NCBI GenBank assembly: GCA_030748435.1
Contig: JASMLZ010000068.1
Span: forward strand, 721 to 64,720
From: Gammaproteobacteria bacterium
Lineage (GTDB): Bacteria; Pseudomonadota; Gammaproteobacteria; Pseudomonadales; Balneatricaceae
DNA: 64,000 nt
Direction of reading: 5' to 3'
Below, in pieces: positions 852 to 50,922 of this stretch (position 1 is its first letter; each line of letters opens with the position of its first letter). Under the pieces are notes generated by a model, which was not told where the DNA came from, made no database searches, and saw only the letters and a program-made list of their open reading frames with translations. A program made the translations under genes and the position numbers.

Positions 852-3290
852 TTAGCCCTTCATACGCTCGCCTGCAGGATCATAGAAGCCTTGCAGGCTG
901 GCCTGGGCAGGGCAGTGTTGCTGGGCGACTTCGATACTGAAATTGGCAGTGGCTATGGCGTCTTTGCTCAGGTTAGGTATATTGACATAGCCCATACCGA
1001 TGGCTGCGCCAACAGCGTGACCATACATGCCCGAGGTCAGATAACCCACATAGTCCCCGTTCATCAGAATAGGTTCGTTGTGGTATAGCAGAGGTTCAGG
1101 GTTATGCAGCTTAAACTGCACCAGACGACGTTCAGGCAGACCTGCTGATTTTTGTTGCAAGAAGGCTTGCTTGCCGATAAAGTCTTTGGCATCCGGTTTG
1201 GCGGTAAAGCTCAGGCCGGCCTGCAGTAGATTATCTTCCGAGGCGATATCATGGCCCCAGTGCCGGAAGCCTTTTTCCAGCCGCAGGCTGTTAAGGGCAT
1301 GCAAGCCCACATTGGCTAGTTCGAACTCAGCACCCGCTTGATGAATGGCAGCGAATAACTTGGTCGCATCAGCCGCAGGTACCATAATTTCCCAACCCAG
1401 TTCGCCCACATAGCTGATACGTTGCAGCCAGCATTTGACTCCCGCGATATTGGCATAGCGACCAGTGCTAAAGGCAAACCCGGCGTTGCTTATATCTGTA
1501 TCAGCAATTTTCTGTAACGTCTTGCGGGCATTGGGGCCTTGCACCGACAAGCAGGCAAAGTCCTGACTGACGTTGGTTACCTGCACGTCACTGCCCTGCA
1601 GGTTTTTGTTCAGGTGCCACCAGTCACGGTTAAACGAACCTATACCGGTGACCACCCAGAAGCGCTCGTCGTCCATACGAGCCACGGTCAGGTCAGCTTC
1701 AATGCCGCCCCGTGTATTGAGCCATTGCGTATAGACCAGCTTGCCCACAGGTACGTCTATATCAGCGGCACTAATATGCTGCAAACTGGCCAGGGCATCT
1801 TTGCCTGTGACGGCAAATTTGCCAAACGAAGACATATCCACCATACCCACACTGTTACGCATGGCCATATGTTCAGCTGCATAGTTAGCAAACCAGTTTT
1901 GGCGCTTATAGCTATACTCGTATGCTGGCTTTTGGCCGGGCTTGGCAAACCAGTTAGGCCGTTCATAGGCACCAACTTCACCAAAGCAGGCGCCTGCATC
2001 GGTAAGGGCCTGATGGATGGGCGATAATTGCTTGTTACGGGCTGTATGATACTGGTAAAAAGGCCAGTGCATGGCATAGGTATGCCCCAGAGCTTCGGGA
2101 ATACGTTCTTGTACATAGTCATCGGTACGCTGCGCAGGATGATGGCGGCGCACATCACAATCGGTAATATCACCGGACGGATAACCATCAATTATCCAGT
2201 CGGCCATAAGCTTGCCCATACCGCCACCGGCACCAATACCCTTGGAGTTCATGCCACAGGCTACCCAGAAGTTATCCAGTTCTGGTGTTGGGCCCAACAG
2301 GTGCAGGTTATCGGCGGTAAAACTTTCCGGGCCATTAAACCAGGTGCGAATACCGACTTCGCCCAGAGTGGGAAAGGTCTCCAGACCTCGCATCAGGTAT
2401 TCTTCGATATGCTCCATATCGCATTCAAACTGATCAAAACAGAAATCTTCGGCAATGCGACTCATGGGCAGGCCCTTGGCATTGTGCTCAAACCAGCCCA
2501 CCAGCATTTTACCGGCATCTTCCTTAAAGTAGACGCCCTTGTCGAAGTCACGTAATACCGGGCGTGGTGTCAGGTCGTTGATTTCTTCTGTCACCACATA
2601 GAAGTGTTCGCAGGCATAAAGGGGTAAATCAATGCCCAGATCCTGCGCAAAATCACGGGACCAAAGCCCACCGGCCAGTACCACCTTGTTGGCCATAATG
2701 GTACCTTGATCGGTACGCACGCCCACGGCCTGACCATGTTCTACGATGATATCTTCAACCTTGGTGTTTTCCTGAATCAAAGCGCCACCCATGCGGGCAC
2801 CCTTGGCCAGAGCCATGGTGGTATCAATGGGATTGGTTTGGCCATCTTTGGCGATATAGAGGCAGCCAATAACGCCATCAGTATTAATACCAGGGTAGAT
2901 TTCCTGCAAGCGTGCATTGCTGATAAATTCCGACTCGACACCAAAAGCGGCACCCATGGAGGCGGTACGACGCAGTTCTTCCATACGCTCTTCAGTACGC
3001 GCCATGGACAGGCTGCCGATACGTTTGTAACCTGTAGCCTGGCCGGTTTCTGCTTCCAGGCTGGCATAGAGTTCATGGCTGTACTCAGCCAATTTGGTGA
3101 GCGTAGGGGTGGGCCATAACATGCTTACCAGACCAGCAGCATGCCAGGTAGTGCCGCAAGTCAGTTGCTTGCGTTCCAGTACCACCACATCTTTTACCCC
3201 CCGTTTGGTCAGATGGTAGGCAATGGAACAACCAGCGATACCACCACCGATAATAACCACTTCAGCTTTTTTGGGCAAAGCAATACTCAT
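852..3290 (-). CDS. Dimethylglycine/sarcosine dehydrogenase-family flavoprotein (DAO FAD domain plus GcvT-type folate-binding domain)
   Basis: 812 aa. N-terminal GGGIAGCS dinucleotide fold. TCGTTWHAAGL contains the histidine that carries covalent FAD in DMGDH/SARDH. The C-terminal half resembles aminomethyltransferase (YVGELGWE). Confidence 0.85.
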   Translation of the reverse strand: MSIALPKKAEVVIIGGGIAGCSIAYHLTKRGVKDVVVLERKQLTCGTTWHAAGLVSMLWPTPTLTKLAEYSHELYASLEAETGQATGYKRIGSLSMARTEERMEELRRTASMGAAFGVESEFISNARLQEIYPGINTDGVIGCLYIAKDGQTNPIDTTMALAKGARMGGALIQENTKVEDIIVEHGQAVGVRTDQGTIMANKVVLAGGLWSRDFAQDLGIDLPLYACEHFYVVTEEINDLTPRPVLRDFDKGVYFKEDAGKMLVGWFEHNAKGLPMSRIAEDFCFDQFECDMEHIEEYLMRGLETFPTLGEVGIRTWFNGPESFTADNLHLLGPTPELDNFWVACGMNSKGIGAGGGMGKLMADWIIDGYPSGDITDCDVRRHHPAQRTDDYVQERIPEALGHTYAMHWPFYQYHTARNKQLSPIHQALTDAGACFGEVGAYERPNWFAKPGQKPAYEYSYKRQNWFANYAAEHMAMRNSVGMVDMSSFGKFAVTGKDALASLQHISAADIDVPVGKLVYTQWLNTRGGIEADLTVARMDDERFWVVTGIGSFNRDWWHLNKNLQGSDVQVTNVSQDFACLSVQGPNARKTLQKIADTDISNAGFAFSTGRYANIAGVKCWLQRISYVGELGWEIMVPAADATKLFAAIHQAGAEFELANVGLHALNSLRLEKGFRHWGHDIASEDNLLQAGLSFTAKPDAKDFIGKQAFLQQKSAGLPERRLVQFKLHNPEPLLYHNEPILMNGDYVGYLTSGMYGHAVGAAIGMGYVNIPNLSKDAIATANFSIEVAQQHCPAQASLQGFYDPAGERMKG

Positions 3291-3320
3291 AAGTATAATC
3301 CTGTTTGTTATGTCGGTCAG

Positions 3321-3364
3321 ATGTAGGTCAACATAGTCGGGTTAAAACCCGACACATAAATGTA
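3321..3364. repeat. REP-like hairpin element, copy 1 (tgtaggtc ... gtcgggtt-aa-aacccgac ... acataaatgta)
   Basis: Intergenic, between the two dehydrogenase genes. Stem GTCGGG/CCCGAC lies at 3336-3353. A near-identical element is at 11614-11650. Confidence 0.6.
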
Positions 3365-3381
3365 ATCGAAAATTGCCTTGA

Positions 3382-5805
3382 TCAGGCGCGTAGTTTTGCG
3401 TTGTCTGGATCGTAGGCCGCATCTATCTCAACGTGGCAGTGACGCCTGCCCAGAGACGTTTCTACGGTTAATCTGGTTCCTGCCTGCGCATGCTCGGGTG
3501 TTACATAGGCAAAAGCCAGGCTCTTGCCCACGCGAAAACCATAAGCACCGCCGGTGATAATGCCGGTTAGTTTGCCGTTGGCAAATACGGCTTCGTTGCC
3601 AAAACATTCGGCGGGTACAGCATCATCAAATACCAGATAGGCCAACTGCATGCTGATACCGTCAGCCTGACGCTGACGTATATTATCGGCGCCAATAAAG
3701 TCACGGCTAAGGTCAAGAAAGCGTTCCATGCCAGCTTCGAGGCCGGAAATTTCTTCGGTAAACTCATGGCCATAGGCACGATAGGCTTTTTCCATACGCA
3801 TAGAGTTAAAGGCGCGACTGCCAAAGTTGCGCAGCCCTAATGGTTCACCAAATTCCATCAGCGATTCATAAATAGAAATCAACTGCCAGACGGGCATATG
3901 CAGCTCCCAGCCTAGTTCACCAGCGTAGGATACGCGCATGGCGAATACCGGGGCCGAATCCAGTTGTATCGTTTTACAGGACAACCAGGGGAAGGCACTA
4001 TTGGACAGGTCTTCCATAGTGATCTGTTGCAAGATATCACGGGCCTTGGGTCCGGTTAGCAGCAAGCCGCCCCAGCTTTCGGTAATATCTTCGATGTGTA
4101 CATTCAGATCGCCTTGATGCCATTGCAGCCATTGATAATCTTTGATTTGTGAGCCAATGGCACCCATCAGTAAAAATTCATTGTCACTGATACGGCTAAT
4201 GGATTGCTCCGCCATAATGCCCCCCTTGGGGGCGTGGAACAGGGTTAAGCCAATGCGGCCATTCTTTTGTGGCAGCTTGTTACAGGACAACTGATCCAGA
4301 AATGCGTAGGCGTCAGGGCCGGTTATACGGAATTTGGCGCTACCACTTAGATCGGTAATGCCACAGGCCTCTTGCACCGCAGCACATTCGGCGGCGACGA
4401 TTGGGTGGGCTTCATTATGGGCCCAGCTTTCACTTTCGCTCTGTACTTGCGCCGTGTGGAACCAGGCTGGTTTTTCGTAGCCAGCCGTAACAAAGTGTTC
4501 AGCTCCGGCTTGTTGCATGACGACATGCAGTGGGCTGGTACGAATGGGGCGGCCATGGGGGCGGTTTTCTGTAGGGGCTGCGCTGGAGTACATGCGCTCA
4601 TAGGATTCGATAGCCCGGGTGATACAGTAGTTTTTATCAGCCCAGGGGCCAAAGCGGCGGCTGTCAAGGCTGGCCATATTAAGTTCAGTTTGGCCATGTA
4701 CCATCCATTGGGCCATATACTTGCCTATGCCTCCCTGAGCAATGCCGATAGAGGCTCCGGAGAGCATCCAGAAGTTGCGTACTTCGGCGGCTGGACCACA
4801 CAGGAAATTGTCGTCTGGTGTATGAGTAATGGCGCCATTAATTATCGTGCGCACACCCACTTCGGCAAAATAGGGGGCCAGGTCCATACAGCGATCCAAA
4901 AACGGCATAATGCGCTCCAGATCACCTTCAAACAGGCCGCGGTCAAAGGACCAGTCCATGCCCCTCAGAGCCCAAGGCTTGGCGCCTCGGGTTTCATAGG
5001 GCCCTACCAGAAAGCCATTGCCTTCCTGACGAATATAGGAGGCTGCCCAGGAATCACGTACCACAGGCAGTTCACGGGTCAGCTTGGCCAATTCCGGGTG
5101 ATCATCGGTAACTAGATACTGATGTTCCACATTCACCAGTGGCACATGCACACCCACCATAGCACCCACTTCAGGCGCAAAACAGCCGCCACAGTTGACC
5201 ACATGTTCGGCGACAATGGTGCCTTTCTCGGTGATCACTTCAAATTCACCGTTATCCATCACATTGATGTCAATAACACGGTTAAAGCGGCTTATGGTGG
5301 CCCCGGCTTCGCGGGCTAGCTGACCTAATGGCATAATGACAGAAGTGGGGTCGACATGGCCATCGTTGGGTGTATGTAAAATGGCTCTAGCATTAGGAAA
5401 AGTCATTACCTGAGCTATATCAGCGGCTTCTTCTTTGGACACCCAATTCATTTCGCAACCAATATTGGCGGCCCTGCTTTTGATATTACGGAACCATTGT
5501 TCTTCTACTTCAGAATAAGCAACACGCAGGGAACCTGTGGTATGAAAACTGGATGGTAACCCCGTCTTAGCGGGTAAAATCTTGTCATACAGTTCAATGG
5601 TGTAGTCGTGAATTTTGGACAGGGTATGGTTGCCGTTAAAGTTTGGGCATAAGCCGGCGGCATGCCAGGTGGAACCACTGGTTAATTCGCCTTTTTCTAC
5701 CAGTACGATATCAGTCCAGCCTTCTTCGGTCAGATGGTAAGCCAGGTTAACGCCGAGGGAACCACCACCAACAATAACAACGCGAGCGTGTGAGGGTAAA
5801 GACAT
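3382..5805 (-). CDS. Second dimethylglycine/sarcosine dehydrogenase-family flavoprotein (DAO plus GcvT-type folate-binding domain)
   Basis: 807 aa and a paralog of 852-3290. It has VVGGGSLG, SGSTWHAAGL and a C-terminal YAGELGWE aminomethyltransferase-like domain. Confidence 0.85.
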   Translation of the reverse strand: MSLPSHARVVIVGGGSLGVNLAYHLTEEGWTDIVLVEKGELTSGSTWHAAGLCPNFNGNHTLSKIHDYTIELYDKILPAKTGLPSSFHTTGSLRVAYSEVEEQWFRNIKSRAANIGCEMNWVSKEEAADIAQVMTFPNARAILHTPNDGHVDPTSVIMPLGQLAREAGATISRFNRVIDINVMDNGEFEVITEKGTIVAEHVVNCGGCFAPEVGAMVGVHVPLVNVEHQYLVTDDHPELAKLTRELPVVRDSWAASYIRQEGNGFLVGPYETRGAKPWALRGMDWSFDRGLFEGDLERIMPFLDRCMDLAPYFAEVGVRTIINGAITHTPDDNFLCGPAAEVRNFWMLSGASIGIAQGGIGKYMAQWMVHGQTELNMASLDSRRFGPWADKNYCITRAIESYERMYSSAAPTENRPHGRPIRTSPLHVVMQQAGAEHFVTAGYEKPAWFHTAQVQSESESWAHNEAHPIVAAECAAVQEACGITDLSGSAKFRITGPDAYAFLDQLSCNKLPQKNGRIGLTLFHAPKGGIMAEQSISRISDNEFLLMGAIGSQIKDYQWLQWHQGDLNVHIEDITESWGGLLLTGPKARDILQQITMEDLSNSAFPWLSCKTIQLDSAPVFAMRVSYAGELGWELHMPVWQLISIYESLMEFGEPLGLRNFGSRAFNSMRMEKAYRAYGHEFTEEISGLEAGMERFLDLSRDFIGADNIRQRQADGISMQLAYLVFDDAVPAECFGNEAVFANGKLTGIITGGAYGFRVGKSLAFAYVTPEHAQAGTRLTVETSLGRRHCHVEIDAAYDPDNAKLRA

Positions 5806-5822
5806 AGTACAACTCCTTGGTT

Positions 5823-7370
5823 TTATTCTGCGCGGCCAATCTGGGCTCGGCTAATGCGAATATTGAAGGCTTTACGGATGGCCATATCGGTAGCATCATC
5901 CACGTGCATCGGAAAATGCTCGGCCAGAATTTTTTCTTTTAAAGCAATAGCCTTATCCAGCAATACTGGTTTGTTGGCTTCTTGCCATTGATTGGGGCTA
6001 AGGCGGTCACCCAATTGTGGATAGATATATTCGCTCTGCATAACCTGCAGAGTTTGGCTGGAGCCCAGATAGTGGCCCTTGTTATTTAAACAGACATCTT
6101 TTATCACAGCAAAGCCAAGGGCTTCTTCGTTCACCTGTAACCCCTTAGTCATGCGCAGGCAAGCGCCAAGTACATCATTATCCATCAACAGGCTTTCCGG
6201 ACAAACCCCCATCAGGCTGGCATACATGCCTGCGGCTTCATATACCACATTGGCTCCGGCCATGGCCGCTGCTCCAGCGGTATAGGCGCGCTCGGCACCG
6301 GCTTGAAAATCGGGTAATTTGGCATCCGTCATGCCACTGGCTGTGCCAGTTGGCAGATCAAAATAATTACCCATTTGTACGCAGGCAGCTGACAAGATAC
6401 CTTGCTCTGGTGAGCCGCCACTCATGGCCCCTGTGCGCAGGTCCGAAACAAATGGCCAGGTACCAATAATAGCTGCTGCGCCGGGTTTGATAGCATTGAC
6501 ATAGACCAGCCCCCCCAGGCACTCCGCCCAGGCTTGGGATACGGCACCGGCCAGTAAGGCAGGAGAGGTGGCTCCGGCCTGACCTGCAGATAGCAGTAGA
6601 ATGGGCATACCACCTTCTACACCCACCCGCAGGCATTCCAGAGACTCTTCAGCAAAAGTCATAGGTGGCACCACAAAGCAGTTGGACATGGAAACAAAAG
6701 GCCGTGCGCGCCACTGTTGTTCACTACCGGCAACCATATGCAGCATCTGCAAACCTTCAGCCACATGGGCCGCATCGGTAAAACTGGTACCAATATGTTT
6801 ACTGGTACCCATAACGGCTTCATAAAGGGTATTTAAATCCAGTTCCCGCGGGTCAGTAATGTCACGTAATACACAGGTACGCTGGAACATATGGATATGT
6901 TCGCATTGATCAGTAATGCGCGCCATATTATAGAGGTCAGAGGTAATGGGATCGCGATAACTATTGGTAGAGGGATCGGCAATATGCACCGCAGCCCCAG
7001 CCGTAGAGAAGTGCACTCTCTGGCCACTTAATTCAAGGTCATGCTTAGGGCTGATACCATGCAAAGTAAGGTTACGCTGGGCCGTTTGTATGGTACGTTC
7101 TACCAGTTCGCGAGGCATCCGCAGGCGCCCGTCTTCTCCCAGTTCTGCTCCAGCAGCCACGCAGGCTGTAATACAATGTGGCGTAGCACGGGCAAAACCG
7201 ATTTCAGCCAAAATACGGTAGGCATTATCAGCTATTGCTGCCATATCGTCAGGCTTAAGTGGTGTATAACTGCCACCAACTTCTCCCGCACGAACGGGTT
7301 TTATCTCTTCAGCAAGGGGCGCTTGCCGTTCTGCTAAACGGGCAGAGCGACCGCCAGATCTGCGAGCCAT
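5823..7370 (-). CDS. MttB-superfamily methyltransferase (trimethylamine methyltransferase family, non-pyrrolysine type)
   Basis: 515 aa. The arginine-rich N-terminus (RRSGGRSARLAERQ) and overall length are typical of MttB-family TIM-barrel proteins. The reading frame has no in-frame TAG, so this is not a Pyl enzyme. An RBS-like aggata lies upstream of the ATG. Confidence 0.8.
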   Translation of the reverse strand: MARRSGGRSARLAERQAPLAEEIKPVRAGEVGGSYTPLKPDDMAAIADNAYRILAEIGFARATPHCITACVAAGAELGEDGRLRMPRELVERTIQTAQRNLTLHGISPKHDLELSGQRVHFSTAGAAVHIADPSTNSYRDPITSDLYNMARITDQCEHIHMFQRTCVLRDITDPRELDLNTLYEAVMGTSKHIGTSFTDAAHVAEGLQMLHMVAGSEQQWRARPFVSMSNCFVVPPMTFAEESLECLRVGVEGGMPILLLSAGQAGATSPALLAGAVSQAWAECLGGLVYVNAIKPGAAAIIGTWPFVSDLRTGAMSGGSPEQGILSAACVQMGNYFDLPTGTASGMTDAKLPDFQAGAERAYTAGAAAMAGANVVYEAAGMYASLMGVCPESLLMDNDVLGACLRMTKGLQVNEEALGFAVIKDVCLNNKGHYLGSSQTLQVMQSEYIYPQLGDRLSPNQWQEANKPVLLDKAIALKEKILAEHFPMHVDDATDMAIRKAFNIRISRAQIGRAE

Positions 7371-7599
7371 ATGATTATCCTATAGCTAAAGACCTTCGCA
7401 CAATGTGGCCCTGTGGTGGTTTTCAAAACGTACTTTTGCGTGCGTTTTTGCCTTGTCACAGGAAAAAATCCCGGCTCGTGCAAAGCTCTCTGTTAGTGTT
7501 TTTATTCTTGCCTTGGCCTCATGCTATCAGGGCAATATTTATCAGGCTTATAGTCGCGATTTTTGGCGTTACTTGCAATTGATAATTTTTTAATTTGAT

Positions 7600-7614
7600 A
7601 TTAGAATTTCTAAT
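7600..7614. promoter_or_regulatory. Candidate LysR operator (T-N11-A box, ATTAGAA-T-TTCTAAT)
   Basis: Perfect 7-bp inverted repeat that fits T-N11-A. It sits in the divergent region between the mttB-like operon and the LysR gene. Confidence 0.45.
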
Positions 7615-7640
7615 CATCAATAATAATAAAGTCCAAGCCT

Positions 7641-8531
7641 GTGGCTCGCAAACTACCCCCATTAAATAGCCTTCGTGCCTTTGAAGCAGCTGCTCGTCAT
7701 TTAAGTTTTACTCGTGCTGCTGATGAATTGTGTGTAACCCAGGCAGCGGTGAGCCACCAAGTAAAGTCTTTGGAAGACCATCTGGATAAGGCTTTGTTTA
7801 TTCGATCCCCGCGTAAATTGCAGTTAACAGAATATGGTCAGCGTTTGTTGCCGGTGTTGGTGGAGAGTCTGGATAATATAGCCGATGTTATCAAAGACCT
7901 GCAACTGGAAGAGTCGCGGGGCATGGTCAAGATACGTTTGGCACCATCTTTTTCTGCTAAGTGGTTATCTCCCAAGTTGATGGATTTCTGGCATCAGTAC
8001 CCTGAGGTCAGCTTATCCATGTACCATGGCAAGCAGGCCGTCGATTTTGTCCGTGAAGATATCGACTTGGCGGTGACTTATGGGCGTGGTTATTGGCCCG
8101 GTGTGGAGTCGTATCCCATTATGAAACTGGATTACTTTCCCGTGGCCAGTCCTGAGTATCTGGCTAGCCGTCCACCTATCCGGGCCTATGAGCAAATGGC
8201 TGAATATTATCTGTTACACGATGGTGATCATGAGTCTTGGTTGGCCTGGTATCGTCAGGTAGGGCTACCTGATATAACCTTGAAGAGCGGTTATATTTTT
8301 GATGATACCAATGTGCTTATTCAAGGAGCCATTGATGGCCAAGGCTTTGCCTTGTGTTCCAGCCAGTTTGTTAGCGATCATTTGCAGTCAGGCAGGTTGG
8401 TAAAAGTGTTTGAGGAAACTCTGGAAACCGATTATGCCTATTATGTATGCTGTCCACCCAGCCATTTAAAACGCCCCGGGGTGTGTGAATTTAGGGATTG
8501 GATGGTGGCTCAATCTGAGCTAACAGCATAA
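7641..8531 (+). CDS. LysR-family transcriptional regulator (GcvA-like)
   Basis: 296 aa with a GTG start. The N-terminal KLPPLNSLRAFEAAARHLSFTRAADELCVTQAAVSHQV is a classic LysR HTH of the GcvA/AmpR subgroup. It is divergent from the mttB-like operon. Confidence 0.85.
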   Translation: MARKLPPLNSLRAFEAAARHLSFTRAADELCVTQAAVSHQVKSLEDHLDKALFIRSPRKLQLTEYGQRLLPVLVESLDNIADVIKDLQLEESRGMVKIRLAPSFSAKWLSPKLMDFWHQYPEVSLSMYHGKQAVDFVREDIDLAVTYGRGYWPGVESYPIMKLDYFPVASPEYLASRPPIRAYEQMAEYYLLHDGDHESWLAWYRQVGLPDITLKSGYIFDDTNVLIQGAIDGQGFALCSSQFVSDHLQSGRLVKVFEETLETDYAYYVCCPPSHLKRPGVCEFRDWMVAQSELTA

Positions 8532-14510: not shown

Positions 14511-16244
14511 ATGTCTACTGATAACCAGCAATCACCAGTTGTACGCCTGCATCCGGGGCGCGGTGTTAATAAGTCGCGTAAGCATTTACGCGGGCGTCAG
14601 GTTGATGGCAAAGCACTGGATGAGGTGCGTGCACTATTGGCTGAGAGGCCTCGTCAACGTGATCTTCTCATAGAATTTTTACACCTTATTCAAGATAAAT
14701 TTGGTTATCTTTCGGCGCCACATTTGGCAGCCTTAGCGCAGGAAATGGGCTTGCCTATGGCTGAAGTGTACGAATGTGCCACATTTTATGCCCATTTTGA
14801 TGTGGTCAAGGAAGGTGAATTGCCACCACCTGCTGTTACCGTGCGTGTGTGTGATAGTTTAAGTTGTCAGTTGGCGGGAGCCGAACAGGTTAAATCTGCC
14901 TTGCTAGCGGGTACCAACCCGGCTCAAGTGCGGGTTCTTAATGCACCTTGCATGGGGCGTTGTGATACGGCACCAGTAGCAGAAGTAGGTCATTATCATG
15001 TTGATTATGCCAGTGCCGACAAAATTAAGTCAGCCATCGACAGTAAGCATTTCCATCCTGAAATTCCAGACTATCTGAGTTATGAAGATTATGTGGCTGA
15101 TGGTGGTTATAAATTGTTAAAGCAGTGCCTTGCCGGTGCTTATAGTTGGGAAGATATTCAGGCTGTTCTGGGTGATGCCAACTTAAAAGGTTTGGGTGGT
15201 GCTGGTTTCCCCACGGCCATGAAATGGAAGTTTGTGCGGCAGGAACCCCAACCCCGTTATGTTGCTATTAATGGTGATGAAGGTGAGCCAGGTACGTTTA
15301 AGGACCGCAGTTATCTGGAAGCCGACCCGCACCGATTTATTGAAGGTGTGCTAATCAGTGCCTGGGCAGTGGAAGCGGAAGCGGCTTATATTTATTTGCG
15401 TGATGAGTATCCTGCAGCGCGTCAGATTTTACTTAATGAAATTCAAAAGGTAGTGGCAGCCGGTTTGGCGCCAGCAGGTGGTATTCATTTGCGGCGCGGC
15501 GCTGGGGCCTATATCTGTGGTGAAGAATCGGCCATGATCGAATCGCTGGAAGGCAAACCCGGTATGCCACGCCACCGTCCACCCTTTGTTGCTCAGGTGG
15601 GTCTGTTTGGTCGCCCCACGCTGGTAAATAATGTAGAAACCGTATTTTGGATTCGCACCCTGTTTGACAAGGGCGCTGAATGGTTTGCTGCTCATGGGCG
15701 TAATGGTTCCAAGGGCTTGCGCAGTTACTCTGTTTCTGGTCGGGTAAAAAATCCAGGCGTAAAGCTGGCTCCTGCCGGTATCAGCATGCAAGAACTGATG
15801 GACGAATACTGTGGTGGTATGGCAGATGGGCACCGCTTTAAGGGGTATTTGCCTGGCGGTGCTTCAGGCGGTATTTTGCCAGCCGGAATGGCCGACATTC
15901 CACTGGATTTTGGCACTTTACAGCCGTATGGCTGTTTTATTGGTTCGGCAGCGGTCGTGGTACTGTCAGAGCAGGACAATATGCGTGATGTGGTGGTTAA
16001 TTTACTCAAATTCTTTGAAGATGAGAGCTGTGGCCAATGCACGCCATGCCGAGTAGGTACCCAGAAGATGGTGGACTTGTTGCAACGCCCTGATTGGGAT
16101 GAAGCCCTGTTACAAGAGCTAAGCAGCACCATGTGTGATGCCTCGATTTGTGGTTTGGGTCAGGCCGCATCCAACCCGATAACCTCGGTATTAAAACACT
16201 TTGATACCGATTTGATCACCACTGATCTGTTGGCTAGTAACTAG
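14511..16244 (+). CDS. fdsB: NAD-dependent formate dehydrogenase diaphorase subunit, fused NuoE-like (gamma) and NuoF-like (beta) domains
   Basis: 577 aa. The N-terminal part is thioredoxin-like 2Fe-2S (CDSLSC ... CMGRCD). It is followed by the NuoF FMN/NADH fold (GLGGAGFPT, GDEGEPGTFKDR) and a 4Fe-4S motif ESCGQCTPCR. Confidence 0.85.
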   Translation: MSTDNQQSPVVRLHPGRGVNKSRKHLRGRQVDGKALDEVRALLAERPRQRDLLIEFLHLIQDKFGYLSAPHLAALAQEMGLPMAEVYECATFYAHFDVVKEGELPPPAVTVRVCDSLSCQLAGAEQVKSALLAGTNPAQVRVLNAPCMGRCDTAPVAEVGHYHVDYASADKIKSAIDSKHFHPEIPDYLSYEDYVADGGYKLLKQCLAGAYSWEDIQAVLGDANLKGLGGAGFPTAMKWKFVRQEPQPRYVAINGDEGEPGTFKDRSYLEADPHRFIEGVLISAWAVEAEAAYIYLRDEYPAARQILLNEIQKVVAAGLAPAGGIHLRRGAGAYICGEESAMIESLEGKPGMPRHRPPFVAQVGLFGRPTLVNNVETVFWIRTLFDKGAEWFAAHGRNGSKGLRSYSVSGRVKNPGVKLAPAGISMQELMDEYCGGMADGHRFKGYLPGGASGGILPAGMADIPLDFGTLQPYGCFIGSAAVVVLSEQDNMRDVVVNLLKFFEDESCGQCTPCRVGTQKMVDLLQRPDWDEALLQELSSTMCDASICGLGQAASNPITSVLKHFDTDLITTDLLASN

Positions 16245-16256
16245 GGGGGTAGACTG

Positions 16257-19019
16257 ATGAGCAACACAACGATTGAATTTACCCTGGATGGTCACACAGT
16301 AGAAGCCCATGCTAATGAAACTATTTGGCAGGTGGCCAAGCGTTACGGCGAAACCATCCCTCATCTATGCTACAAGCCTGACCCCGGTTATCGTGCTGAC
16401 GGCAATTGTCGTGCCTGTATGGTAGAGATTGAAGGTGAGCGTACTTTGGCGGCTTCCTGTATGCGTAAGCCAAGTGCCGGTATGGTGATCAATAGTGCCA
16501 CTTCCGAGCGCTCCCAGACAGCTCGTAAAATGGTGATGGAATTGCTGGCAACCGACCAGCCAGAGCGTGAGCAGTCGCCTGATAAGAGTTCCCATTTCTG
16601 GGCCATGGCTGATTTGTTGGCGGTGGATGCCACCCAGAGTCGCTTTGCCGAGACAGAAAAGCCGCAAGCCGATAATTCCAGCCATGCCATGCGGGTAAAT
16701 CTGCAGTCCTGCATTAATTGTAATCTTTGTGTGCGCGCCTGCCGCGAAGTGCAGGTCAATGATGTTATTGGTATGGCTAATCGTGGGGCCGATGCCAAGG
16801 TGGTATTTGATTTTGATGATCCTATGGGTGAATCCACCTGCGTGAACTGTGGTGAATGTGTACAGGCCTGCCCCACAGGTGCCCTGATGCCAGCAGAGAT
16901 CACCAGTGTTGAAGGTGTAGGTGACAGTGCCGATTATGATCGCAAGGTCGACAGTATTTGTCAGTACTGTGGTGTGGGTTGCCAATTAACCTACCATGTT
17001 AAAGATGATCGTATTATCTATGTTGAGGGTCGTGATGGACCAGCAAATCAGAACCGGCTATGTGTGAAGGGCCGCTTTGGCTCCGATTATATACACCACG
17101 GTGATCGCCTGACCAAACCGTTAATACGTATCCCGGGTGCGCGTAAGGGTATTTATGGTGATTTTGATCCTGCCAAGCCATTAACCCATTTCCGCGAAGC
17201 CAGTTGGCAGGAAGCCCTGGACTTTGCTGCAGGCGGCTTAAAACGCTTGCGTGATGAGGAAGGTAAGCAAACCCTAGCTGGTTTTGGCAGTGCTAAAGGC
17301 TCTAACGAGGAAGCTTATTTATTCCAGAAGCTGGTGCGTACCGGCTTTGGTACCAATAATGTGGACCACTGTACCCGCTTGTGTCATGCCTCATCGGTGA
17401 TGGCCTTGCTGGAAGGCTTGGGGTCGGGTGCTGTTTCGGCTTCCTTTATGCAGGCCAAAAACGCCGAAGTCATTGTGATCACCGGCTCCAACCCTACCAA
17501 TAATCACCCTGTGGCGGCAACCTTCTTTAAGCAGGCAGCCAAGCGTGGGGCGAAGATTATCGTGGTGGATCCGCGTGGTTTGGTGATGAAGAAGTATGCC
17601 ACCCATATGGTGCGCTTTAATCCCGGCAGTGACGTCAGTTTCTGGAATGCAGTGATGCATGTGGTGGTGACTGAAAAACTGTATAACCAGTCCTATATAG
17701 ACACCATGACGGTTGGTTTTGCGGCCTTAAAAGAGCATGTAAAGCACTATACGCCGGAAGCCATGTCGGCTATCTGCGGGGTAGCACCGGATATGATTCG
17801 TGAAGTGGCGCGCCTCTATGCAACTTCCAAAGGCTCCATGATTTTCTGGGGTATGGGTGTATCCCAGCATGTACACGGCACTGACAATGTGCGGGCCATG
17901 ATTTCTTTGGCCTTGATGACCGGGCAAATTGGTCGTGAGGGCACCGGTCTGCATCCGCTACGCGGGCAAAACAATGTACAAGGCGCTTCCGATGCGGGTT
18001 TGATCCCCATGATGTACCCTGATTATAAGAAGGTGAATGTCGGTGACGTACAGGCGCGTTTTGAAGCCCTGTGGGGCGCTGAACTGGATGACAAGCCCGG
18101 TTTAACCGTGGTGGAAACCATGGATGCTATCCATGACGGCGTGATTAAGGGTATGTATATTGAAGGGGAAAATCCGGCCATGTCTGACCCGGATTTAAAC
18201 CACGCCCGTGCGGCTCTGGCTAAATTGGAGCACTTGGTGGTACAGGACCTGTTTGTCACCGAAACGGCTATGTATGCCGATGTGGTGTTGCCTGCTGCGG
18301 CCTGGCCAGAGAAAGACGGTACTGTGTCCAATACCAATCGTCAGGTGCAAATGGGCCGTCAGGCCGTATCGCCACCGGGAGATGCACGTCAGGACTGGTG
18401 GATTATTCAGGCAATTGCTCAGCGTATGGGGCTGGATTGGCAGTATACCCATCCCAAAGATATATTTAACGAGATGAAGCAGGCTATGGCCAGCCTGAAT
18501 AACTTGACCTGGGAACGACTGGAAACGGAAGAGTCTGTTACCTACCCATGCCCGGCCGCAGACCACCCCGGTAATGATATTGTCTTTACCGACGCCTTCC
18601 CTATTGAGGGAGGCAAGGGTAAATTTGTGCCAGCCGATATTGTTGACCCGGATGAGCGTCCGGATGATGATTATCCCGTTATACTGACCACTGGTCGCCA
18701 GTTAGAACATTGGCATACGGGTTCCATGACTCGCCGCGCTCCAGTATTGGATGCTCTGGAACCCTCTGCCGTGGCAACCTTGTGCCGTTCTGAACTGGAT
18801 AAGATTGGTGCCAAGGCCGGTGATATGATCCGTGTATCGACCCGGCGGGGCAGCATCGAGCTATTAGCGCGAGAAGATGTTGATATGCCAGAGGGTCTGA
18901 TCTTTATTCCGTTTGCCTATGTAGAAGCGGCCGCTAACGAGCTGACTAACCCCGTATTAGACCCAGTAGGCAAAATACCGGAATTTAAATTCTGTGCTGC
19001 CAAATTGGAATTGGCTTAA
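16257..19019 (+). CDS. fdsA: Formate dehydrogenase alpha subunit (Mo-bis-PGD, NuoG-like N-terminus)
   Basis: 920 aa. It carries N-terminal 2Fe-2S and multiple 4Fe-4S motifs (CINCNLCVRAC, CVNCGECVQACP) and a molybdopterin oxidoreductase domain. The active-site region is HCTRLCHASS, so the ligand is Cys, with no in-frame TGA. Confidence 0.9.
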   Translation: MSNTTIEFTLDGHTVEAHANETIWQVAKRYGETIPHLCYKPDPGYRADGNCRACMVEIEGERTLAASCMRKPSAGMVINSATSERSQTARKMVMELLATDQPEREQSPDKSSHFWAMADLLAVDATQSRFAETEKPQADNSSHAMRVNLQSCINCNLCVRACREVQVNDVIGMANRGADAKVVFDFDDPMGESTCVNCGECVQACPTGALMPAEITSVEGVGDSADYDRKVDSICQYCGVGCQLTYHVKDDRIIYVEGRDGPANQNRLCVKGRFGSDYIHHGDRLTKPLIRIPGARKGIYGDFDPAKPLTHFREASWQEALDFAAGGLKRLRDEEGKQTLAGFGSAKGSNEEAYLFQKLVRTGFGTNNVDHCTRLCHASSVMALLEGLGSGAVSASFMQAKNAEVIVITGSNPTNNHPVAATFFKQAAKRGAKIIVVDPRGLVMKKYATHMVRFNPGSDVSFWNAVMHVVVTEKLYNQSYIDTMTVGFAALKEHVKHYTPEAMSAICGVAPDMIREVARLYATSKGSMIFWGMGVSQHVHGTDNVRAMISLALMTGQIGREGTGLHPLRGQNNVQGASDAGLIPMMYPDYKKVNVGDVQARFEALWGAELDDKPGLTVVETMDAIHDGVIKGMYIEGENPAMSDPDLNHARAALAKLEHLVVQDLFVTETAMYADVVLPAAAWPEKDGTVSNTNRQVQMGRQAVSPPGDARQDWWIIQAIAQRMGLDWQYTHPKDIFNEMKQAMASLNNLTWERLETEESVTYPCPAADHPGNDIVFTDAFPIEGGKGKFVPADIVDPDERPDDDYPVILTTGRQLEHWHTGSMTRRAPVLDALEPSAVATLCRSELDKIGAKAGDMIRVSTRRGSIELLAREDVDMPEGLIFIPFAYVEAAANELTNPVLDPVGKIPEFKFCAAKLELA

Positions 19020-25047: not shown

Positions 25048-25099
25048 CCATCGTTTTTGGCTTGACCAAAGGCGTCTAAAGGGCCATTATATGCGCCAG

Positions 25100-25300
25100 T
25101 TTTGGGTGCTTTATCAACGGCTGAAAAGCCGCCGTAAAGCTTAAAAGGGAACATCTAAGTAAAACTTTATGCTGAGATGGCTGTCCCCGCAACTGTATGG
25201 ACTGGGTTGTTACTCAACTTGGTCTGAGCCAGGAGACCTGCCCAAACTACTTAACCAGATGCCGGGTGAGCATCGGGCGAGGCAAGTATTGGTTTCCTCT
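25100..25300 (+). promoter_or_regulatory. Cobalamin (B12) riboswitch
   Basis: Conserved core elements occur in the correct order: AAAAGGGAAC (25143-25152), GTCCCCGCAACTGTA (about 25183-25197) and the B12 box GAGCCAGGAGACCTGCCC (25226-25243). It lies directly upstream of the cobalt transporter operon. The boundaries are approximate. Confidence 0.8.
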
Positions 25301-25345
25301 CCCTGCATAATGCCCGCTTGTAAAAGTTTTTTTAGGAACCGATCA

Positions 25346-26143
25346 ATGCCTTTTACTGCCGTTTTTAAAGCCATCCTTGTGCTAGGAATCTACTGTTTTA
25401 GTCAACTTGGTCATGCTCACTTTCAGTTGCTTTATACTGATACCGCAATTATAGAAAAAGCCGCTCCAGTCCCCGCCAAACTGATTTTTTGGCACCCTAT
25501 GGATAATGGTCATGGCATGGATATGCAACGCCCGCTGGAAGTCAGTGTTATACATCGTGGGCAGCACACTGACCTGACCGATAACGTTATGCAGACACAA
25601 TTTATTGGCCAGCATAATACCGCCGTGAGCTGGGATGTTAGTATTCCGGTAAAGCGCTCAGGTGATTATGTGGTTATTGTTACTCCTGAACCCTATTATG
25701 AAGCCTCTGAAGATATTTATATTCAACAGATTACCAAAGCCTATTTAAATCGTAACCAACTGCCTACGGATTGGCACCAGATGCACGGCCTGACGGCTGA
25801 AATTCGTCCTTTGATTAAGCCTTATAATGTTGCTGTTGGCACAAGTTTTCGTGGTCAAGTGTTGAATGCAGGCAAGCCGGTTGCGTTTGCTGAAATTGAA
25901 GTGGAGTATATGATCGCACCACCGGATATGACTACTGGCAAAGTGAGTTCCAGTGCCAGTCTGGAATTACCAGGTGGCTCTATAACCCTGTTGAGTGATG
26001 CCCATGGTATATTTAGCATGGCTATACCTAAAGCAGGTTACTGGGGTTTTGCTGCCTTGGGAGTGGGTAGTGATGACCACTATAAAGGCAAGCAATTATC
26101 TCAGGATGCCGTAATCTGGGTGCAAGCCCATGAGTTTAACTAG
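25346..26143 (+). CDS. DUF4198-type periplasmic protein, K-type auxiliary component of a Cbi/Nik ECF transporter
   Basis: A signal peptide (MPFTAVFKAILVLGIYCFSQLGHA) is followed by HFQLLY and a carboxypeptidase-regulatory-like beta-sandwich segment. I trimmed the start from 25169 because the upstream part of that ORF is the riboswitch. Confidence 0.65.
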   Translation: MPFTAVFKAILVLGIYCFSQLGHAHFQLLYTDTAIIEKAAPVPAKLIFWHPMDNGHGMDMQRPLEVSVIHRGQHTDLTDNVMQTQFIGQHNTAVSWDVSIPVKRSGDYVVIVTPEPYYEASEDIYIQQITKAYLNRNQLPTDWHQMHGLTAEIRPLIKPYNVAVGTSFRGQVLNAGKPVAFAEIEVEYMIAPPDMTTGKVSSSASLELPGGSITLLSDAHGIFSMAIPKAGYWGFAALGVGSDDHYKGKQLSQDAVIWVQAHEFN

Positions 26144-26152
26144 GAGAGCAAT

Positions 26153-26761
26153 TTGCATATTGTTGACGGGGCCTTGACCACCGAGGTTTTGCTAATTGGC
26201 GCGGCCTTAACTGGGTTAGGCCTGATGCAGGGTCTGCGAAGCATGCCGCTGGAGAAGATTCCTGCTACAGGTATGCTGGCGGCAACGTTTTTTGTTGCTT
26301 CTCTGATACATGTGCCTTTGGGGCCTTCTTCGGTGCATTTGATTATGAATGGCGTGGCGGGAATCCTACTGGGTTGGGCCGCTGTGCCGGCCTTGTTTGT
26401 CGGTTTACTGTTGCAAGCGATATTTTTCGGCTATGGCGGTATAACTGTGCTAGGTGTTAATGCCTGCAATATTGCTTTGCCAGCGGTGCTGGTTTACTAC
26501 TTAATTAGGCCGTTTATTGTGCGTGCCAGTGTCCGGCAACAGTTTATTTTTGGCGCCTTTGGAGGTGGTTTGGCAGTGGCTGGTAGCACGTTAATGGTGG
26601 CTGCCAGTTTATGGTTTAGTGGTGAAGAATTTATACCCGCTGCCAAACTGGTTTTGGTAAGCCATATCCCGGTAATCTTCATCGAAGCTTTATTATCTGG
26701 TGCAACGCTTTATCTGGTGGCCAAGGTAAAGCCGGAATTGTTTATGGGCAGGAGCTGGTAA
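26153..26761 (+). CDS. cbiM: ECF transporter substrate-capture component CbiM/NikM (cobalt/nickel)
   Basis: 202 aa and polytopic. The N-terminus Met-His-Ile-x-Asp/Glu-Gly is characteristic of CbiM/NikM. The start is TTG, preceded by AGGAGAG. Confidence 0.8.
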   Translation: MHIVDGALTTEVLLIGAALTGLGLMQGLRSMPLEKIPATGMLAATFFVASLIHVPLGPSSVHLIMNGVAGILLGWAAVPALFVGLLLQAIFFGYGGITVLGVNACNIALPAVLVYYLIRPFIVRASVRQQFIFGAFGGGLAVAGSTLMVAASLWFSGEEFIPAAKLVLVSHIPVIFIEALLSGATLYLVAKVKPELFMGRSW

Positions 26762-26763
26762 AG

Positions 26764-27342
26764 ATGCGAACAGCTCTGCTAATGGTTCTATTGACTGCTA
26801 TAAGTCCATGGGTGTGGGGTCATAAAGTAATTCTTGATGTATTTGTTAGTGGCGCGGTTGTTGAAGGTGAACTAGGTTTTTCCAATGGCGAAATGGCTAA
26901 CCAGCAAATGATATCGGTGTACAATACGATGGGGCAGGAACTAGCCCAAGTGCACACAGATAAGAATGGTTTTTTCTCTTATACTCCGGGCCAGAAAGTT
27001 GACCAGGTGTTTGTTGCTGATCTTGGCGCTGGGCATCTAGCCAAAGCCACTTTATCGGCGTCTGAATTGACATCAAACATGCAGTTATCAAGTGCCCCTG
27101 TGGCCCAACAGACAGAAGCGGAAAGTCCCAGATTGCCAGCCACTCAGCTAACCTCTGAGCAGGTCAATATGGCCCTTGAGTTACAAAAATTAAGTGTGGA
27201 AATCCGTCAGATGCGCCGCGCATTGAAGGCTTATAAAGAGCAACATGATTGGCAAACTATTTTGGGTGGTATGGGCTATATATTGGGTTTGGTGGGGTTA
27301 GGTTATTATTTCGCGGCACGGCGCCGGTTGCAGGATAAATAA
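26764..27342 (+). CDS. L-type auxiliary membrane-anchored component of the Cbi/Nik transporter (N-terminal signal, beta-sandwich, C-terminal TM)
   Basis: 192 aa. It has an N-terminal signal/anchor, a soluble domain and a C-terminal hydrophobic helix (ILGGMGYILGLVGLGYYF). Its position between M and Q matches the K-M-L-Q-O gene order described for some Nik/Cbi systems. Confidence 0.45.
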   Translation: MRTALLMVLLTAISPWVWGHKVILDVFVSGAVVEGELGFSNGEMANQQMISVYNTMGQELAQVHTDKNGFFSYTPGQKVDQVFVADLGAGHLAKATLSASELTSNMQLSSAPVAQQTEAESPRLPATQLTSEQVNMALELQKLSVEIRQMRRALKAYKEQHDWQTILGGMGYILGLVGLGYYFAARRRLQDK

Positions 27343-27343
27343 T

Positions 27344-28078
27344 ATGTTTTGGGTAACGAGCATTGATCCTCGTGTACGCATTATACTGGCTTTGCTGTTT
27401 AGTCTGGTTGTGGTGTCACTAAAGGCTTTGCCTTTATTGCTAGTGGCTTTTGCGATGGGGCTATTAATATTGCCAGGTTCCGGTCTGTCTTGGCAGTTAA
27501 CCCTGAAACGCATGTTGGCGATGGATGGCTTTATCCTGCTTATGTTGATTATGTTGCCGTTTACGGTCGCTGGAGACTTCTGGTTTAGTATCGCTGGCTT
27601 TACGGCCACCTGGCAGGGTTTATGGCGGGCGGTAGAAATAGCCTTGAAGGCTAATGCCATTGTTTTAATGCTGCTTACTCTGGTGGGCAGTATGGAAAGT
27701 GTGACCTTAGGACATGCTCTGGGAAAACTTAGAGTGTCCAGAAGTTTGGTGCACTTGCTGTTGTTTACTGTACGTTATGTTGAGGTGTTGAAAGAAGAAT
27801 ATCAGCGCTTACGTCAGGCTATGCAGGCACGTGCCTTTCGCCCGGGGAATAACTGGCATACCTATCGTAGTTTTGGTTACCTGTTTGGTATGTTGTTGGT
27901 GCGTGCCATGGAGCGCTCTGAGCGAGTTATGGAAGCGATGCAATGTCGCGGTTTTAATGGCCAGTTACCTATGTTAGCGCAATTACGTATGGGCCTTATG
28001 GACTGGGTGTTTATAAGCGTTATGTTGGCAGCCTTGGGTGGTTTAATGTATTTGGAGATATATCGTGTCATTATTTGA
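27344..28078 (+). CDS. cbiQ: ECF transporter transmembrane (T) component CbiQ
   Basis: 244 aa membrane protein with the CbiQ-like ARAFR / MxxRG coupling motifs (MQARAFRPG ... MQCRGF). Confidence 0.8.
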   Translation: MFWVTSIDPRVRIILALLFSLVVVSLKALPLLLVAFAMGLLILPGSGLSWQLTLKRMLAMDGFILLMLIMLPFTVAGDFWFSIAGFTATWQGLWRAVEIALKANAIVLMLLTLVGSMESVTLGHALGKLRVSRSLVHLLLFTVRYVEVLKEEYQRLRQAMQARAFRPGNNWHTYRSFGYLFGMLLVRAMERSERVMEAMQCRGFNGQLPMLAQLRMGLMDWVFISVMLAALGGLMYLEIYRVII

Positions 28079-28742
28079 ACTTGCCAATATTCATTTTGGC
28101 TATGTTGGTTGTCCGCCGGTTTTGAACGGGGCCAATTTATCTCTGCAAGCTGGGGAGCGTTTGTGCATTACTGGCCATAATGGTGCTGGTAAGTCGACTT
28201 TGTTACGTATTATGGTGGGTTTGCTTAAGCCCAATAAAGGCTCGATCACTGCTTTTGGTCAGCTCTGTCAGCAAGATAAAGATTTTTATAGTGTGCGTCA
28301 GCGAGCAGGTTTGGTATTTCAGGATGCCGATGATCAGCTGTTTTGCCCCACCGTGGCGGAAGATATTGCCTTTGGTCCCTTAAATCAGGGCAAAAGCCCG
28401 GCGCAAGCTATGCAGTTGGTAACAGATTTATTGCAGCAAATGCAATTAGGTTACCTACAGGATCGGGTGACACATAAGTTATCAGGAGGAGAAAAACGCC
28501 TTGTGGCTTTAGCTTCAGTATTGGCTATGCAACCGGAAGTGTTATTACTGGATGAGCCAACCAACGCTCTGGATGAGGAAAATGAAGCGCGTTTGGTGGC
28601 AATCTTACAGGGTTTGCCACAAGCTATGGTGCTGGTGAGTCACGACCCGCATTTCCGCCGTAAGATTGGTAATCGTACCCTGCGGGTAGTCGAAGGCCAA
28701 CTGCTGGAGTCCAATGCCTCCTGCCGCCATGCTGTGGCCTAG
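28065..28742 (+). CDS. cbiO: ECF transporter ATPase CbiO
   Basis: 225 aa with a GTG start overlapping the end of cbiQ. It has Walker A GHNGAGKST, signature LSGGEKR and Walker B LLLDEP. Confidence 0.85.
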   Translation: MSLFELANIHFGYVGCPPVLNGANLSLQAGERLCITGHNGAGKSTLLRIMVGLLKPNKGSITAFGQLCQQDKDFYSVRQRAGLVFQDADDQLFCPTVAEDIAFGPLNQGKSPAQAMQLVTDLLQQMQLGYLQDRVTHKLSGGEKRLVALASVLAMQPEVLLLDEPTNALDEENEARLVAILQGLPQAMVLVSHDPHFRRKIGNRTLRVVEGQLLESNASCRHAVA

Positions 28743-30612: not shown

Positions 30613-30833
30613 GGGTCTTCTTGATAGGTAAGTTACCCGCTTATTGTACATCTATTGCACTAATTTGAGCTTACGTGTTTGCGTCTTTTTTATGTTCGTG
30701 GTGGTGTTTGTCTCGATAACTTGACTTAGGTCGCAACTAAATAAGCTATTAGGGTGGGCTTTATGCACAATAGGTAACAATTGCTGAGCTCTGCTGTTAA
30801 GTGGAGTTTTTTTATTACCATATGGTTGACCCT

Positions 30834-32084
30834 ATGAAAAAATATTCAGGCTTTAGCCTCTTTAAACATGCTTTAAAGCATCATGAAGATTGGCAGAAGA
30901 CGTGGCGTAGCCCACGTCCCAAGCAGTCCTACGATGTTATTATTGTGGGCGGTGGCGGCCATGGCTTAGCCACGGCTTACTATCTGGCCAAAGAACATGG
31001 CATCACTAATGTAGCGGTGCTGGAAAAAGGCTATTTGGGCGGTGGTAACACGGCCCGCAACACGACCATTGTGCGTTCCAACTATTTGTGGGACGAGTCG
31101 TCCAGACTTTATGATCATGCTCTGGATCTTTGGTATGGCCTGAGTCAGGACCTGAACTATAATGTGATGTTTAGTTCTCGTGGGGTTATGAATCTGGGCC
31201 ATAACCTGCAGGATATGCGCGATATTGAACGTCGAGTTAATGCTAACCGCCTAAATGGCATTGATGCCGCTGTGCTGACTACCAAAGAAGTCAAAGACAT
31301 TGTGCCTATTATTAACGACTCGCAGGATATCCGCTACCCGATTCTAGGTGCTTCCTGGCAAAAAACCGGTGGTGTGGCACGTCACGATGCTGTGGCTTGG
31401 GGCTATGCTCGCGGCGCTGACCAGTTGGGTGTGGATTTGATTCAACAGTGTGAAGTAACGGACATTGTGGTTGAGCAGGGAGCGGTTACAGGTGTGCAGA
31501 CCAGTCAGGGCTTTATTGGCGCCAAAAAGGTTGCCTGTGTTACGGCTGGTAACTCCGGTGTGATGGCCTCTATGGCAGGTATTCGCCTGCCTCTGGAATC
31601 GCACCCGTTGCAGGCTTTGGTATCTGAACCCATTAAGCCCATTATTGATACGGTGGTGATGTCCAATGCTGTGCATGCTTATGTGAGTCAATCAGATAAG
31701 GGTGACTTGGTAATTGGTGCTGGCATCGACGCCTATAATGGCTATGGTCAGCGCGGTAGCCTGCATGTGGTTGAACATACCTTGTCGGCTATTTGTGAAC
31801 TCTTCCCCATGTTTAGTCGCGTGCGTATGAATCGTGCCTGGGGCGGAATTGTGGATACCTGTCCCGATGCTTGTCCGATCATCTCCAAAACCCAGGTTGA
31901 TGGTTTGTACTTTAATTGTGGTTGGGGCACTGGCGGCTTTAAGGCCACGCCGGGTTCTGGTCATGTATTTGCCCATACGGTGGCCCATGATGATCCTCAT
32001 CCGTTGGCTAAACCATTTACTATCGACCGCTTTAACACTGGCCATTTGATTGATGAGCATGGTGCTGCTGGCGTGGCGCACTAG
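30834..32084 (+). CDS. soxB: Sarcosine oxidase subunit beta
   Basis: 416 aa. [27 protein letters not shown] is followed by [18 protein letters not shown], a typical SoxB N-terminus. It heads a soxBDAG gene order. Confidence 0.9.
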
Positions 32085-50914: not shown

Positions 50915-50922
50915 GACGGGTT

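Follow-up and report, generated by a model that had tools for sequence, protein, structure and literature searches.

Glycine betaine is among the most abundant osmolytes of the ocean, and the route by which it is demethylated determines how its carbon and nitrogen are recycled and how much vitamin B12 is required. The aerobic Ruegeria pomeroyi demethylates it via the pfam06253 proteins SPO2108 and SPO2134, whose partners are the cobalamin-binding MtgC (SPO2160), the pterin-binding MtgD (SPO1863), RamA (SPO2041) and a DUF1638 protein (SPO2162) (Mausz et al. 2025, PMC12478193). The mtgB, mtgC, mtgD, ramA and DUF1638 genes are dispersed in its genome, knockouts of mtgC and mtgD were made, and MtgC and MtgD also serve a split methionine synthase; homologs of the mtg genes occur in Alpha-, Delta- and Gammaproteobacteria, with up to seven pfam06253 genes per genome (PMC12478193). 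In Phaeobacter inhibens, mtgB1 was deleted and cbiM was found to be induced on betaine (bioRxiv 10.64898/2025.12.19.695462). The glycine betaine site of MtgB is made up of Y97, R312, H348 and F356, and the substitutions R312L and H348E abolish activity (Picking et al. 2026, PMC13080624). R312 is kept in all characterised members of the family that do not contain pyrrolysine (Pyl), whose substrates are all acidic quaternary amines, and MtgB methylates free cob(I)alamin in vitro (PMC13080624). Here we examined a 64-kb stretch (64,000 bp, referred to as the window) of contig JASMLZ010000068.1 from a gammaproteobacterial metagenome-assembled genome (MAG), and in particular an operon on its minus strand (852-7370) which encodes a protein of the MttB superfamily (MttB1) and two flavoproteins (DH1 and DH2) resembling dimethylglycine and sarcosine dehydrogenases (DMGDH/SARDH).

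We consider it probable that this operon provides a cobalamin-dependent MtgBCD-type system with its substrate-specific methyltransferase and encodes, in addition, two tetrahydrofolate (THF)-linked flavoprotein N-demethylases, with the other partners supplied in trans. As in the MtgBCD(E) systems of R. pomeroyi and P. inhibens, a pfam06253 methyltransferase is found in an aerobe, the corrinoid, pterin-binding and reactivation genes are not adjacent to it, there is a link to dimethylglycine and sarcosine demethylation and to THF-bound C1 oxidation, and genes for cobalt uptake and B12 sensing lie nearby; in addition, loci with MttB1 orthologs hold either MtgC and DUF1638 or MtgC, Pterin_bind and RACo. 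On the other hand, MttB1 falls in a deep paralogous clade, being 24% identical to the MtgB/4YYC-like second paralog of the window (MttB2), and the partners are known here from orthologous loci. As judged from the sequences, the novelty lies in a subfamily of MttB that is abundant and uncharacterised and whose substrate pocket is divergent, the rest of the locus being largely ordinary. The statement in the initial annotation that the characterised non-Pyl MttB members all come from anaerobes is outdated, since R. pomeroyi and P. inhibens are aerobic (PMC12478193, bioRxiv 10.64898/2025.12.19.695462).

Family and substrate pocket of MttB1

The initial annotation had called an uninterrupted ORF of the MttB family, and a profile search confirmed it: MttB1, with no internal stop, matched Pfam MTTB (PF06253) with 361.9 bits, against a cut-off of 25, over profile positions 1-491 of 500, and is thus a member of the superfamily. 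Compared with structure-linked proteins (in sequence only), it scored 181 bits with MtgB of Desulfitobacterium hafniense (2QNE/9YCE), a glycine betaine:corrinoid methyltransferase, 165 bits with the Pyl-containing trimethylamine methyltransferase MttB of Methanosarcina barkeri (7XCL) and 141 bits with 4YYC. Its score with TIGR02369, which represents the Pyl-dependent MttB, was 314.5 bits and thus below the cut-off of 525, and the codon aligned with the pyrrolysine UAG is AUG (Met347), so that MttB1 stands outside the Pyl-dependent enzymes.

MttB1 has in common with D. hafniense MtgB the superfamily, full-length homology and the lack of pyrrolysine, and presumably also methyl transfer to Co(I); it differs in four pocket residues, in its aerobic host and in that its products would be oxidised by DMGDH-type enzymes. 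To the Pyl MttB of M. barkeri (7XCL) it is comparably similar, with a Gly at the Y97-equivalent position and with surroundings of the Pyl codon similar enough to trigger a match to the Rfam model PYLIS_3, whereas the codon itself, the score under the TIGR02369 cut-off and the non-methanogenic context set the two apart.

The alignment of both MttB paralogs of the window at the pocket and Pyl positions, which had been proposed in the initial annotation, revealed that all four glycine-betaine-binding residues of MtgB are replaced in MttB1 (Y97G, R312G, H348E and F356L; Table 1), which separates it from MtgB of the D. hafniense type; MttB2 reads T/R/L/H/G. Since the flanking motifs align without gaps, the assignments of R312 and H348 are robust. 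Across all 71 orthologs, the signature of MttB1 varies only at the R312-equivalent position, the other four being constant.

Table 1 Residues at the substrate pocket and at the pyrrolysine (Pyl) position, from a multiple alignment
Protein	Y97	R312	Pyl position	H348	F356
D. hafniense MtgB	Y	R	L	H	F
MttB1 (numbering of the window protein)	G125	G342	M347	E378	L386
MttB1 orthologs (71 of 71)	G	G/A/S	M	E	L
MttB next to MtgC-DUF1638 in loci L053 and L058, and S. meliloti 4YYC	Y	R	L	H	G
MttB2 of the window	T	R	L	H	G

From these residues, it appears that MttB1 either binds glycine betaine differently or uses another methylated amine. Although its clade fails the comparison with MtgB, it probably works like an MtgB. 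The alternative, in which MttB1 is corrinoid-dependent and acts on a substrate other than glycine betaine (for instance a non-acidic amine, such as choline or a methylamine, or else a different betaine), with a product that still feeds both DMGDH-type enzymes, is possible but on the unlikely side. It would account for a pocket of G125/G342/M347/E378/L386 where MtgB has Y97/R312/L/H348/F356, given that R312 is conserved across all characterised enzymes for acidic quaternary amines, and it agrees with the nearly equal scores against the Pyl-MttB (165 bits; TIGR02369, 314 bits) and MtgB (181 bits). However, DH1, the partner that is conserved, most closely matches a genuine DMGDH (570 bits), the BCCT transporter, the GbdR-like and GcvA-like regulators and the sarcosine oxidase indicate a route from betaine to glycine, and the window holds no canonical MtgB with Y, R, L and H, so that the first step would need another enzyme.

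The PYLIS_3 match within MttB1 begins exactly at the Met347 AUG that is aligned with the pyrrolysine UAG, and several of its pairs were flagged as non-canonical. Because of this start codon and these pairs, we rejected it as a genuine pyrrolysine insertion RNA element and ascribed it to homology of the coding sequence. Matches of this type in MttB1-like genes are a likely source of false PYLIS annotations.

The MttB1-dehydrogenase module and its orthologous loci

The two flavoproteins of about 810 aa noticed in the initial annotation were recovered with 807 and 812 aa, and the gaps are 17 bp between MttB1 and DH1 and 91 bp between DH1 and DH2. Both DH1 and DH2 have the Pfam domains DAO, FAO_M, GCV_T and GCV_T_C, which places them in the DMGDH/SARDH family, and both carry the TWHAAG covalent-FAD motif (residues 46-51 in DH1 and 48-53 in DH2). 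They are 31% identical to each other and matched human DMGDH (5L46) with 570 and 496 bits, respectively. The four-domain architecture, the TWHAAG motif and the GcvT folate domain are those of the mammalian and bacterial DMGDH/SARDH (PDB 5L46, 4PAA and 1PJ5), whereas the split of roles between dimethylglycine and sarcosine is suggested by the relative scores alone.

A scan of one genome per species gave 80 loci with MttB1 orthologs, and with two loci fetched earlier the sample amounted to 82 (labels such as L002 and L035 refer to these loci). The nearest relatives were marine Oceanospirillaceae/Pseudomonadales MAGs, with 86-88% identity and full synteny. A DMGDH-like gene was within reach in 59 of the 80 scanned loci (in 61 of all 82), and two such genes in 30 of the 80; this cluster, as obtained by neighbour clustering, pools DH1- and DH2-type proteins. 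In at least 37 of the 66 loci that could be scored, the MttB1 ortholog is directly followed by a gene of the cluster, typically with a length of 804-809 aa, which is that of DH1. A divergent LysR gene was present in 40 of the 82 loci. The MttB1-dehydrogenase pair was found in uncultured marine Gammaproteobacteria (Oceanospirillaceae-like, SAR92/Porticoccaceae, SUP05/Pseudothioglobus, Pseudohongiella and Woeseia), which have in common this conserved pair of an MttB-family and a DMGDH-type protein, the former not being a canonical MtgB, and also in Thiothrix-like and sponge-associated lineages. The module is real and widely conserved.

This conservation bears on the idea that MttB1 is a catalytically inactive or regulatory relic beside which the two dehydrogenases act alone, as the absence of the known substrate-binding residues might suggest. 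We regard it as highly improbable, since MttB1 homologs number in the thousands (the 120 best listed being 66-100% identical), four of the five pocket positions are invariant in all 71 orthologs, synteny is kept across several gammaproteobacterial orders and the ORF is intact.

A 240-aa protein with B12-binding_2 and B12-binding domains, confirmed by Pfam and of the MtgC type, is encoded within 10 kb of the MttB1 ortholog in 9 of the 82 loci, and the nine orthologs linked to it are 64-67% identical to MttB1 with an identical pocket signature. The MtgC-type gene is immediately downstream of the ortholog in L035 (Woeseia) and in L051, at which two dehydrogenase genes come next in convergent orientation. 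In L056, the genes for MtgC, a Pterin_bind protein, a RACo-type activase and the MttB1 ortholog follow each other on one strand with small gaps. A DUF1638 gene comes after MtgC in L054, and homologs of cluster 43 are found at that position in L047, L053 and L058. The gene that follows MttB and MtgC in L035 (12452-14449, plus strand) encodes a 665-aa Hydantoinase_A/MutL-like ASKHA protein, not RACo/RamA, and may represent an alternative ATP-dependent corrinoid reactivase.

Two of these loci, L053 (18338-20790) and L058 (17962-20435), which are Pseudomonadales/gammaproteobacterial and resemble the Pseudohongiella locus L054, hold both MttB types in one neighbourhood: a canonical MtgB-like gene (Y, R, L, H, G) is directly upstream of MtgC-DUF1638, while the MttB1 ortholog adjoins a BCCT transporter gene. 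As the two types co-occur, the two clades are not redundant copies of one function. The presence of this paralog alongside MttB1 is a further point for a substrate other than glycine betaine, and so are the GMC oxidoreductase, aldehyde dehydrogenase and PrpD genes that adjoin the Alphaproteobacterial homologs. The betaine and C1 neighbours in related loci are a BCCT transporter, AraC regulators with a DJ-1/PfpI domain, FTHFS and 5-formyl-THF cyclo-ligase. We take these AraC regulators to be GbdR-like, after the Pseudomonas family.

An aldehyde dehydrogenase gene upstream of the SUP05 orthologs was considered as BetB and rejected, since PfkB/DUF2090, GFO_IDH_MocA and sugar ABC transporter genes surround it; we read this gene cluster as one for inositol catabolism (iol-type) and not as a bet operon. 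The neighbours of the L067 type (5-oxoprolinase-like, pyridoxal phosphate-dependent enzymes and an M24 peptidase) offered no hint of what the substrate might be.

The missing corrinoid partner and the proposed route

According to the initial annotation, the 64 kb lack an ORF for a B12-binding protein, an MtrH/MetH-like methyltransferase or an Fe-S activase, and the searches bear this out for corrinoid, pterin-binding and RACo/RamA genes. No Pfam match to B12-binding, Pterin_bind or RACo was obtained among the window ORFs of at least 150 aa, and the MtgC profile had no match in any frame of the window (stop-to-stop segments of at least 40 aa, E<=1). Likewise, no corrinoid protein was detected within 10 kb in 73 of the 82 related loci, all closest relatives included. 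A search of 5.8 billion proteins with the MtgC profile was swamped by thousands of near-identical sequences of other lineages, with an identity of 76% or more to the Pseudohongiella query in each of the 120 matches listed, and is uninformative on the lineage of the window. Entries for Oceanospirillales, Marinomonas or Halomonas were not found in Dataset S2 of PMC12478193. Single-cell genomes of the SUP05 clade, in which MttB1 orthologs occur too, are listed with MtgC and MtgD homologs. A search with the Ruegeria atlantica homolog returned no R. pomeroyi sequence, so that it gave no link of the MttB1 clade to MtgB1 or MtgB2.

Could MttB1 do without a dedicated partner? That the Oceanospirillaceae-like lineage has no dedicated corrinoid protein, and that MttB1 passes the methyl group directly to THF (perhaps DH1-bound), to free cobalamin or to the B12 domain of MetH, appears improbable to us. 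The same holds for its broader form, in which the MttB1 clade is always paired with a THF-binding DMGDH-type enzyme and delivers the methyl group without an MtgC-type carrier. The partner genes are missing from the window and, within 10 kb, from most related loci, the 17-bp gap couples MttB1 very tightly to a THF-binding flavoprotein, and free cob(I)alamin is methylated by MtgB in vitro, all of which would fit. However, orthologs with an identical pocket signature occur in MtgC/MtgD/RACo operons, R. pomeroyi documents dispersed partner genes as the norm, and MtgC and MtgD homologs accompany the SUP05 clade. Moreover, no MttB-family enzyme is known to use THF directly. A functional MttB1 with no corrinoid partner would be striking, but an ordinary and already published explanation exists.

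The dispersed partners in R. pomeroyi, together with the MtgC/Pterin_bind/RACo operons of the orthologs, argue that the missing local partner does not mean a new mechanism. A set of B12 partners encoded elsewhere is most likely the ordinary explanation, and it is already described for aerobic marine bacteria. Thus, of the three methyl acceptors offered in the initial annotation, a partner encoded elsewhere stands as likely and as a known arrangement, whereas nothing positive supports direct THF or free cobalamin for this lineage. Its view that MttB is used here in a way not yet described proved unsupported, given that dispersed partners are published and that orthologs sit in corrinoid/pterin-binding/RACo operons of other Gammaproteobacteria. 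A cognate corrinoid set encoded elsewhere, which it had named as a finding that would count against its idea, was identified in orthologous loci and, for this MAG, not within the 64 kb examined.

In the MtgBCD-type reading that we favour, MttB1 would use a quaternary amine, most probably glycine betaine, as its substrate and pass the first methyl group on to Co(I) of an MtgC-type corrinoid protein, from which an MtgD-type pterin-binding methyltransferase would hand it to THF, while a RACo/RamA-type activase and/or a DUF1638 protein would re-reduce oxidised cobalamin. DH1 would then demethylate dimethylglycine, and sarcosine would be converted to glycine by DH2 or by SoxBDAG. The C1 units would enter THF, and the formate would go to the NAD-formate dehydrogenase of the window. 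The three partner genes would lie outside the 64-kb window in the same genome; we infer their presence in this MAG, as we infer glycine betaine as the substrate. Glycine betaine is favoured because of the DMGDH-like partner, the BCCT transporters, the GbdR-like and GcvA-like regulators, the sarcosine oxidase and the THF enzymes. The stepwise route from betaine via dimethylglycine and sarcosine to glycine, as put forward in the initial annotation, is in our judgement reasonable.

Several observations weigh against this assignment. MttB1 is without all four glycine-betaine-binding residues of D. hafniense MtgB, and its clade carries E at 348 and G, A or S at 312 throughout the 71 orthologs. The canonical MtgB-like paralog in L053 and L058 may mean that MttB1 is not the glycine betaine enzyme there. 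In addition, neither the window nor the 10-kb surroundings in the closest relatives (77-88% identity) were found to hold a partner gene.

If the MttB1 clade is the real betaine demethylase of these Gammaproteobacteria, it would escape marker-gene surveys that search for MtgB-like sequences or the MtgB binding motif, and its pocket would represent a second way to bind a quaternary amine.

Regulator, B12 and C1 genes, and other features of the window

The coordinates of the features are given in Table 2. The divergent GcvA-like LysR gene and the T-N11-A palindrome noted in the initial annotation were both recovered. The LysR product scored 325.7 bits with NCBIfam NF008352 (GcvA), against a cut-off of 288, and thus belongs to the GcvA subfamily. 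The palindrome TTAGAATTTCTAA has a single match in the window, against an expectation of 0 in shuffled sequence, and is kept at the same position in the relatives L002, L005, L007 and L008. The GcvA-like LysR probably acts on this candidate box to control the operon, whose genes are presumably co-transcribed and regulated together.

A perfect 8-bp inverted repeat (GTCGGGTT..AACCCGAC, 3336-3353) lies in the DH1-DH2 spacer. On the coding strand no run of T follows it, and it may form an intercistronic stem-loop.

Table 2 Features of the window (positions in the 64-kb stretch)
Feature	Position	Strand	Remarks
MttB1 gene	5823-7370	-	515 aa, no internal stop; MDP6969006.1
DH1, dimethylglycine-dehydrogenase-like flavoprotein	3382-5805	-	807 aa; 17 bp after MttB1
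DH2, second DMGDH/SARDH-like flavoprotein	852-3290	-	812 aa
LysR regulator, GcvA-type	7641-8531	+	NCBIfam NF008352; divergent from the operon
T-N11-A inverted repeat TTAGAATTTCTAA	7601-7613	strandless	Candidate LysR box
Rfam PYLIS_3 match inside MttB1	6233-6332	-	42.1 bits, gathering score 38; rejected as an RNA element
NAD-dependent formate dehydrogenase subunits	14511-19019	+	C1 oxidation context
Cobalamin riboswitch	25087-25259	+	Rfam RF00174, 63 bits, gathering score 31.5
DUF4198-CbiM-NikL-CbiQ-CbiO cobalt/nickel ECF-type transporter	25169-28742	+	Downstream of the riboswitch
Heterotetrameric sarcosine oxidase genes	30801-35967	+	soxB, soxA and soxG scored; soxB-soxA gap 32084-32382 (expected soxD site) unscored
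MttB2, second MttB paralog	53332-54891	+	MtgB/4YYC-like, pocket T, R, L, H, G

The oxidative, THF-linked context described in the initial annotation was found in place, with the Sox and NAD-formate dehydrogenase genes and the second MttB paralog all located in the window. As a cobalamin riboswitch stands ahead of a cobalt transporter, the organism appears to sense B12 and to import cobalt. The riboswitch-transporter unit has the formate dehydrogenase/molybdopterin genes on one side and those for sarcosine oxidase on the other. Since the aptamer overlaps with the annotated start of the first transporter ORF, the real start probably lies further downstream.

MttB2 scored 342 bits with MtgB and 464 bits with 4YYC, and no local corrinoid partner was found for it in the window either. 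Its neighbours in 48437-57004 include a divergent LysR gene (52254-53165) and, before MttB2, DHDPS-family, aldehyde dehydrogenase and DAO genes, which resemble those of hydroxyproline catabolism; a 687-aa FMN/FAD oxidoreductase, distantly related to FadH and trimethylamine dehydrogenase, comes after it. The locus looks like a cluster for demethylation and catabolism of (hydroxy)proline betaine.

A genuine 2,4-dienoyl-CoA reductase, FadH (906 bits to 1PS9), is encoded on the minus strand (42875-46986), accompanied by genes for an enoyl-CoA hydratase and an SDR. FadH has no relation to the genes of amine demethylation, though it has the Oxidored_FMN and Pyr_redox_2 architecture in common with the oxidoreductase next to MttB2.

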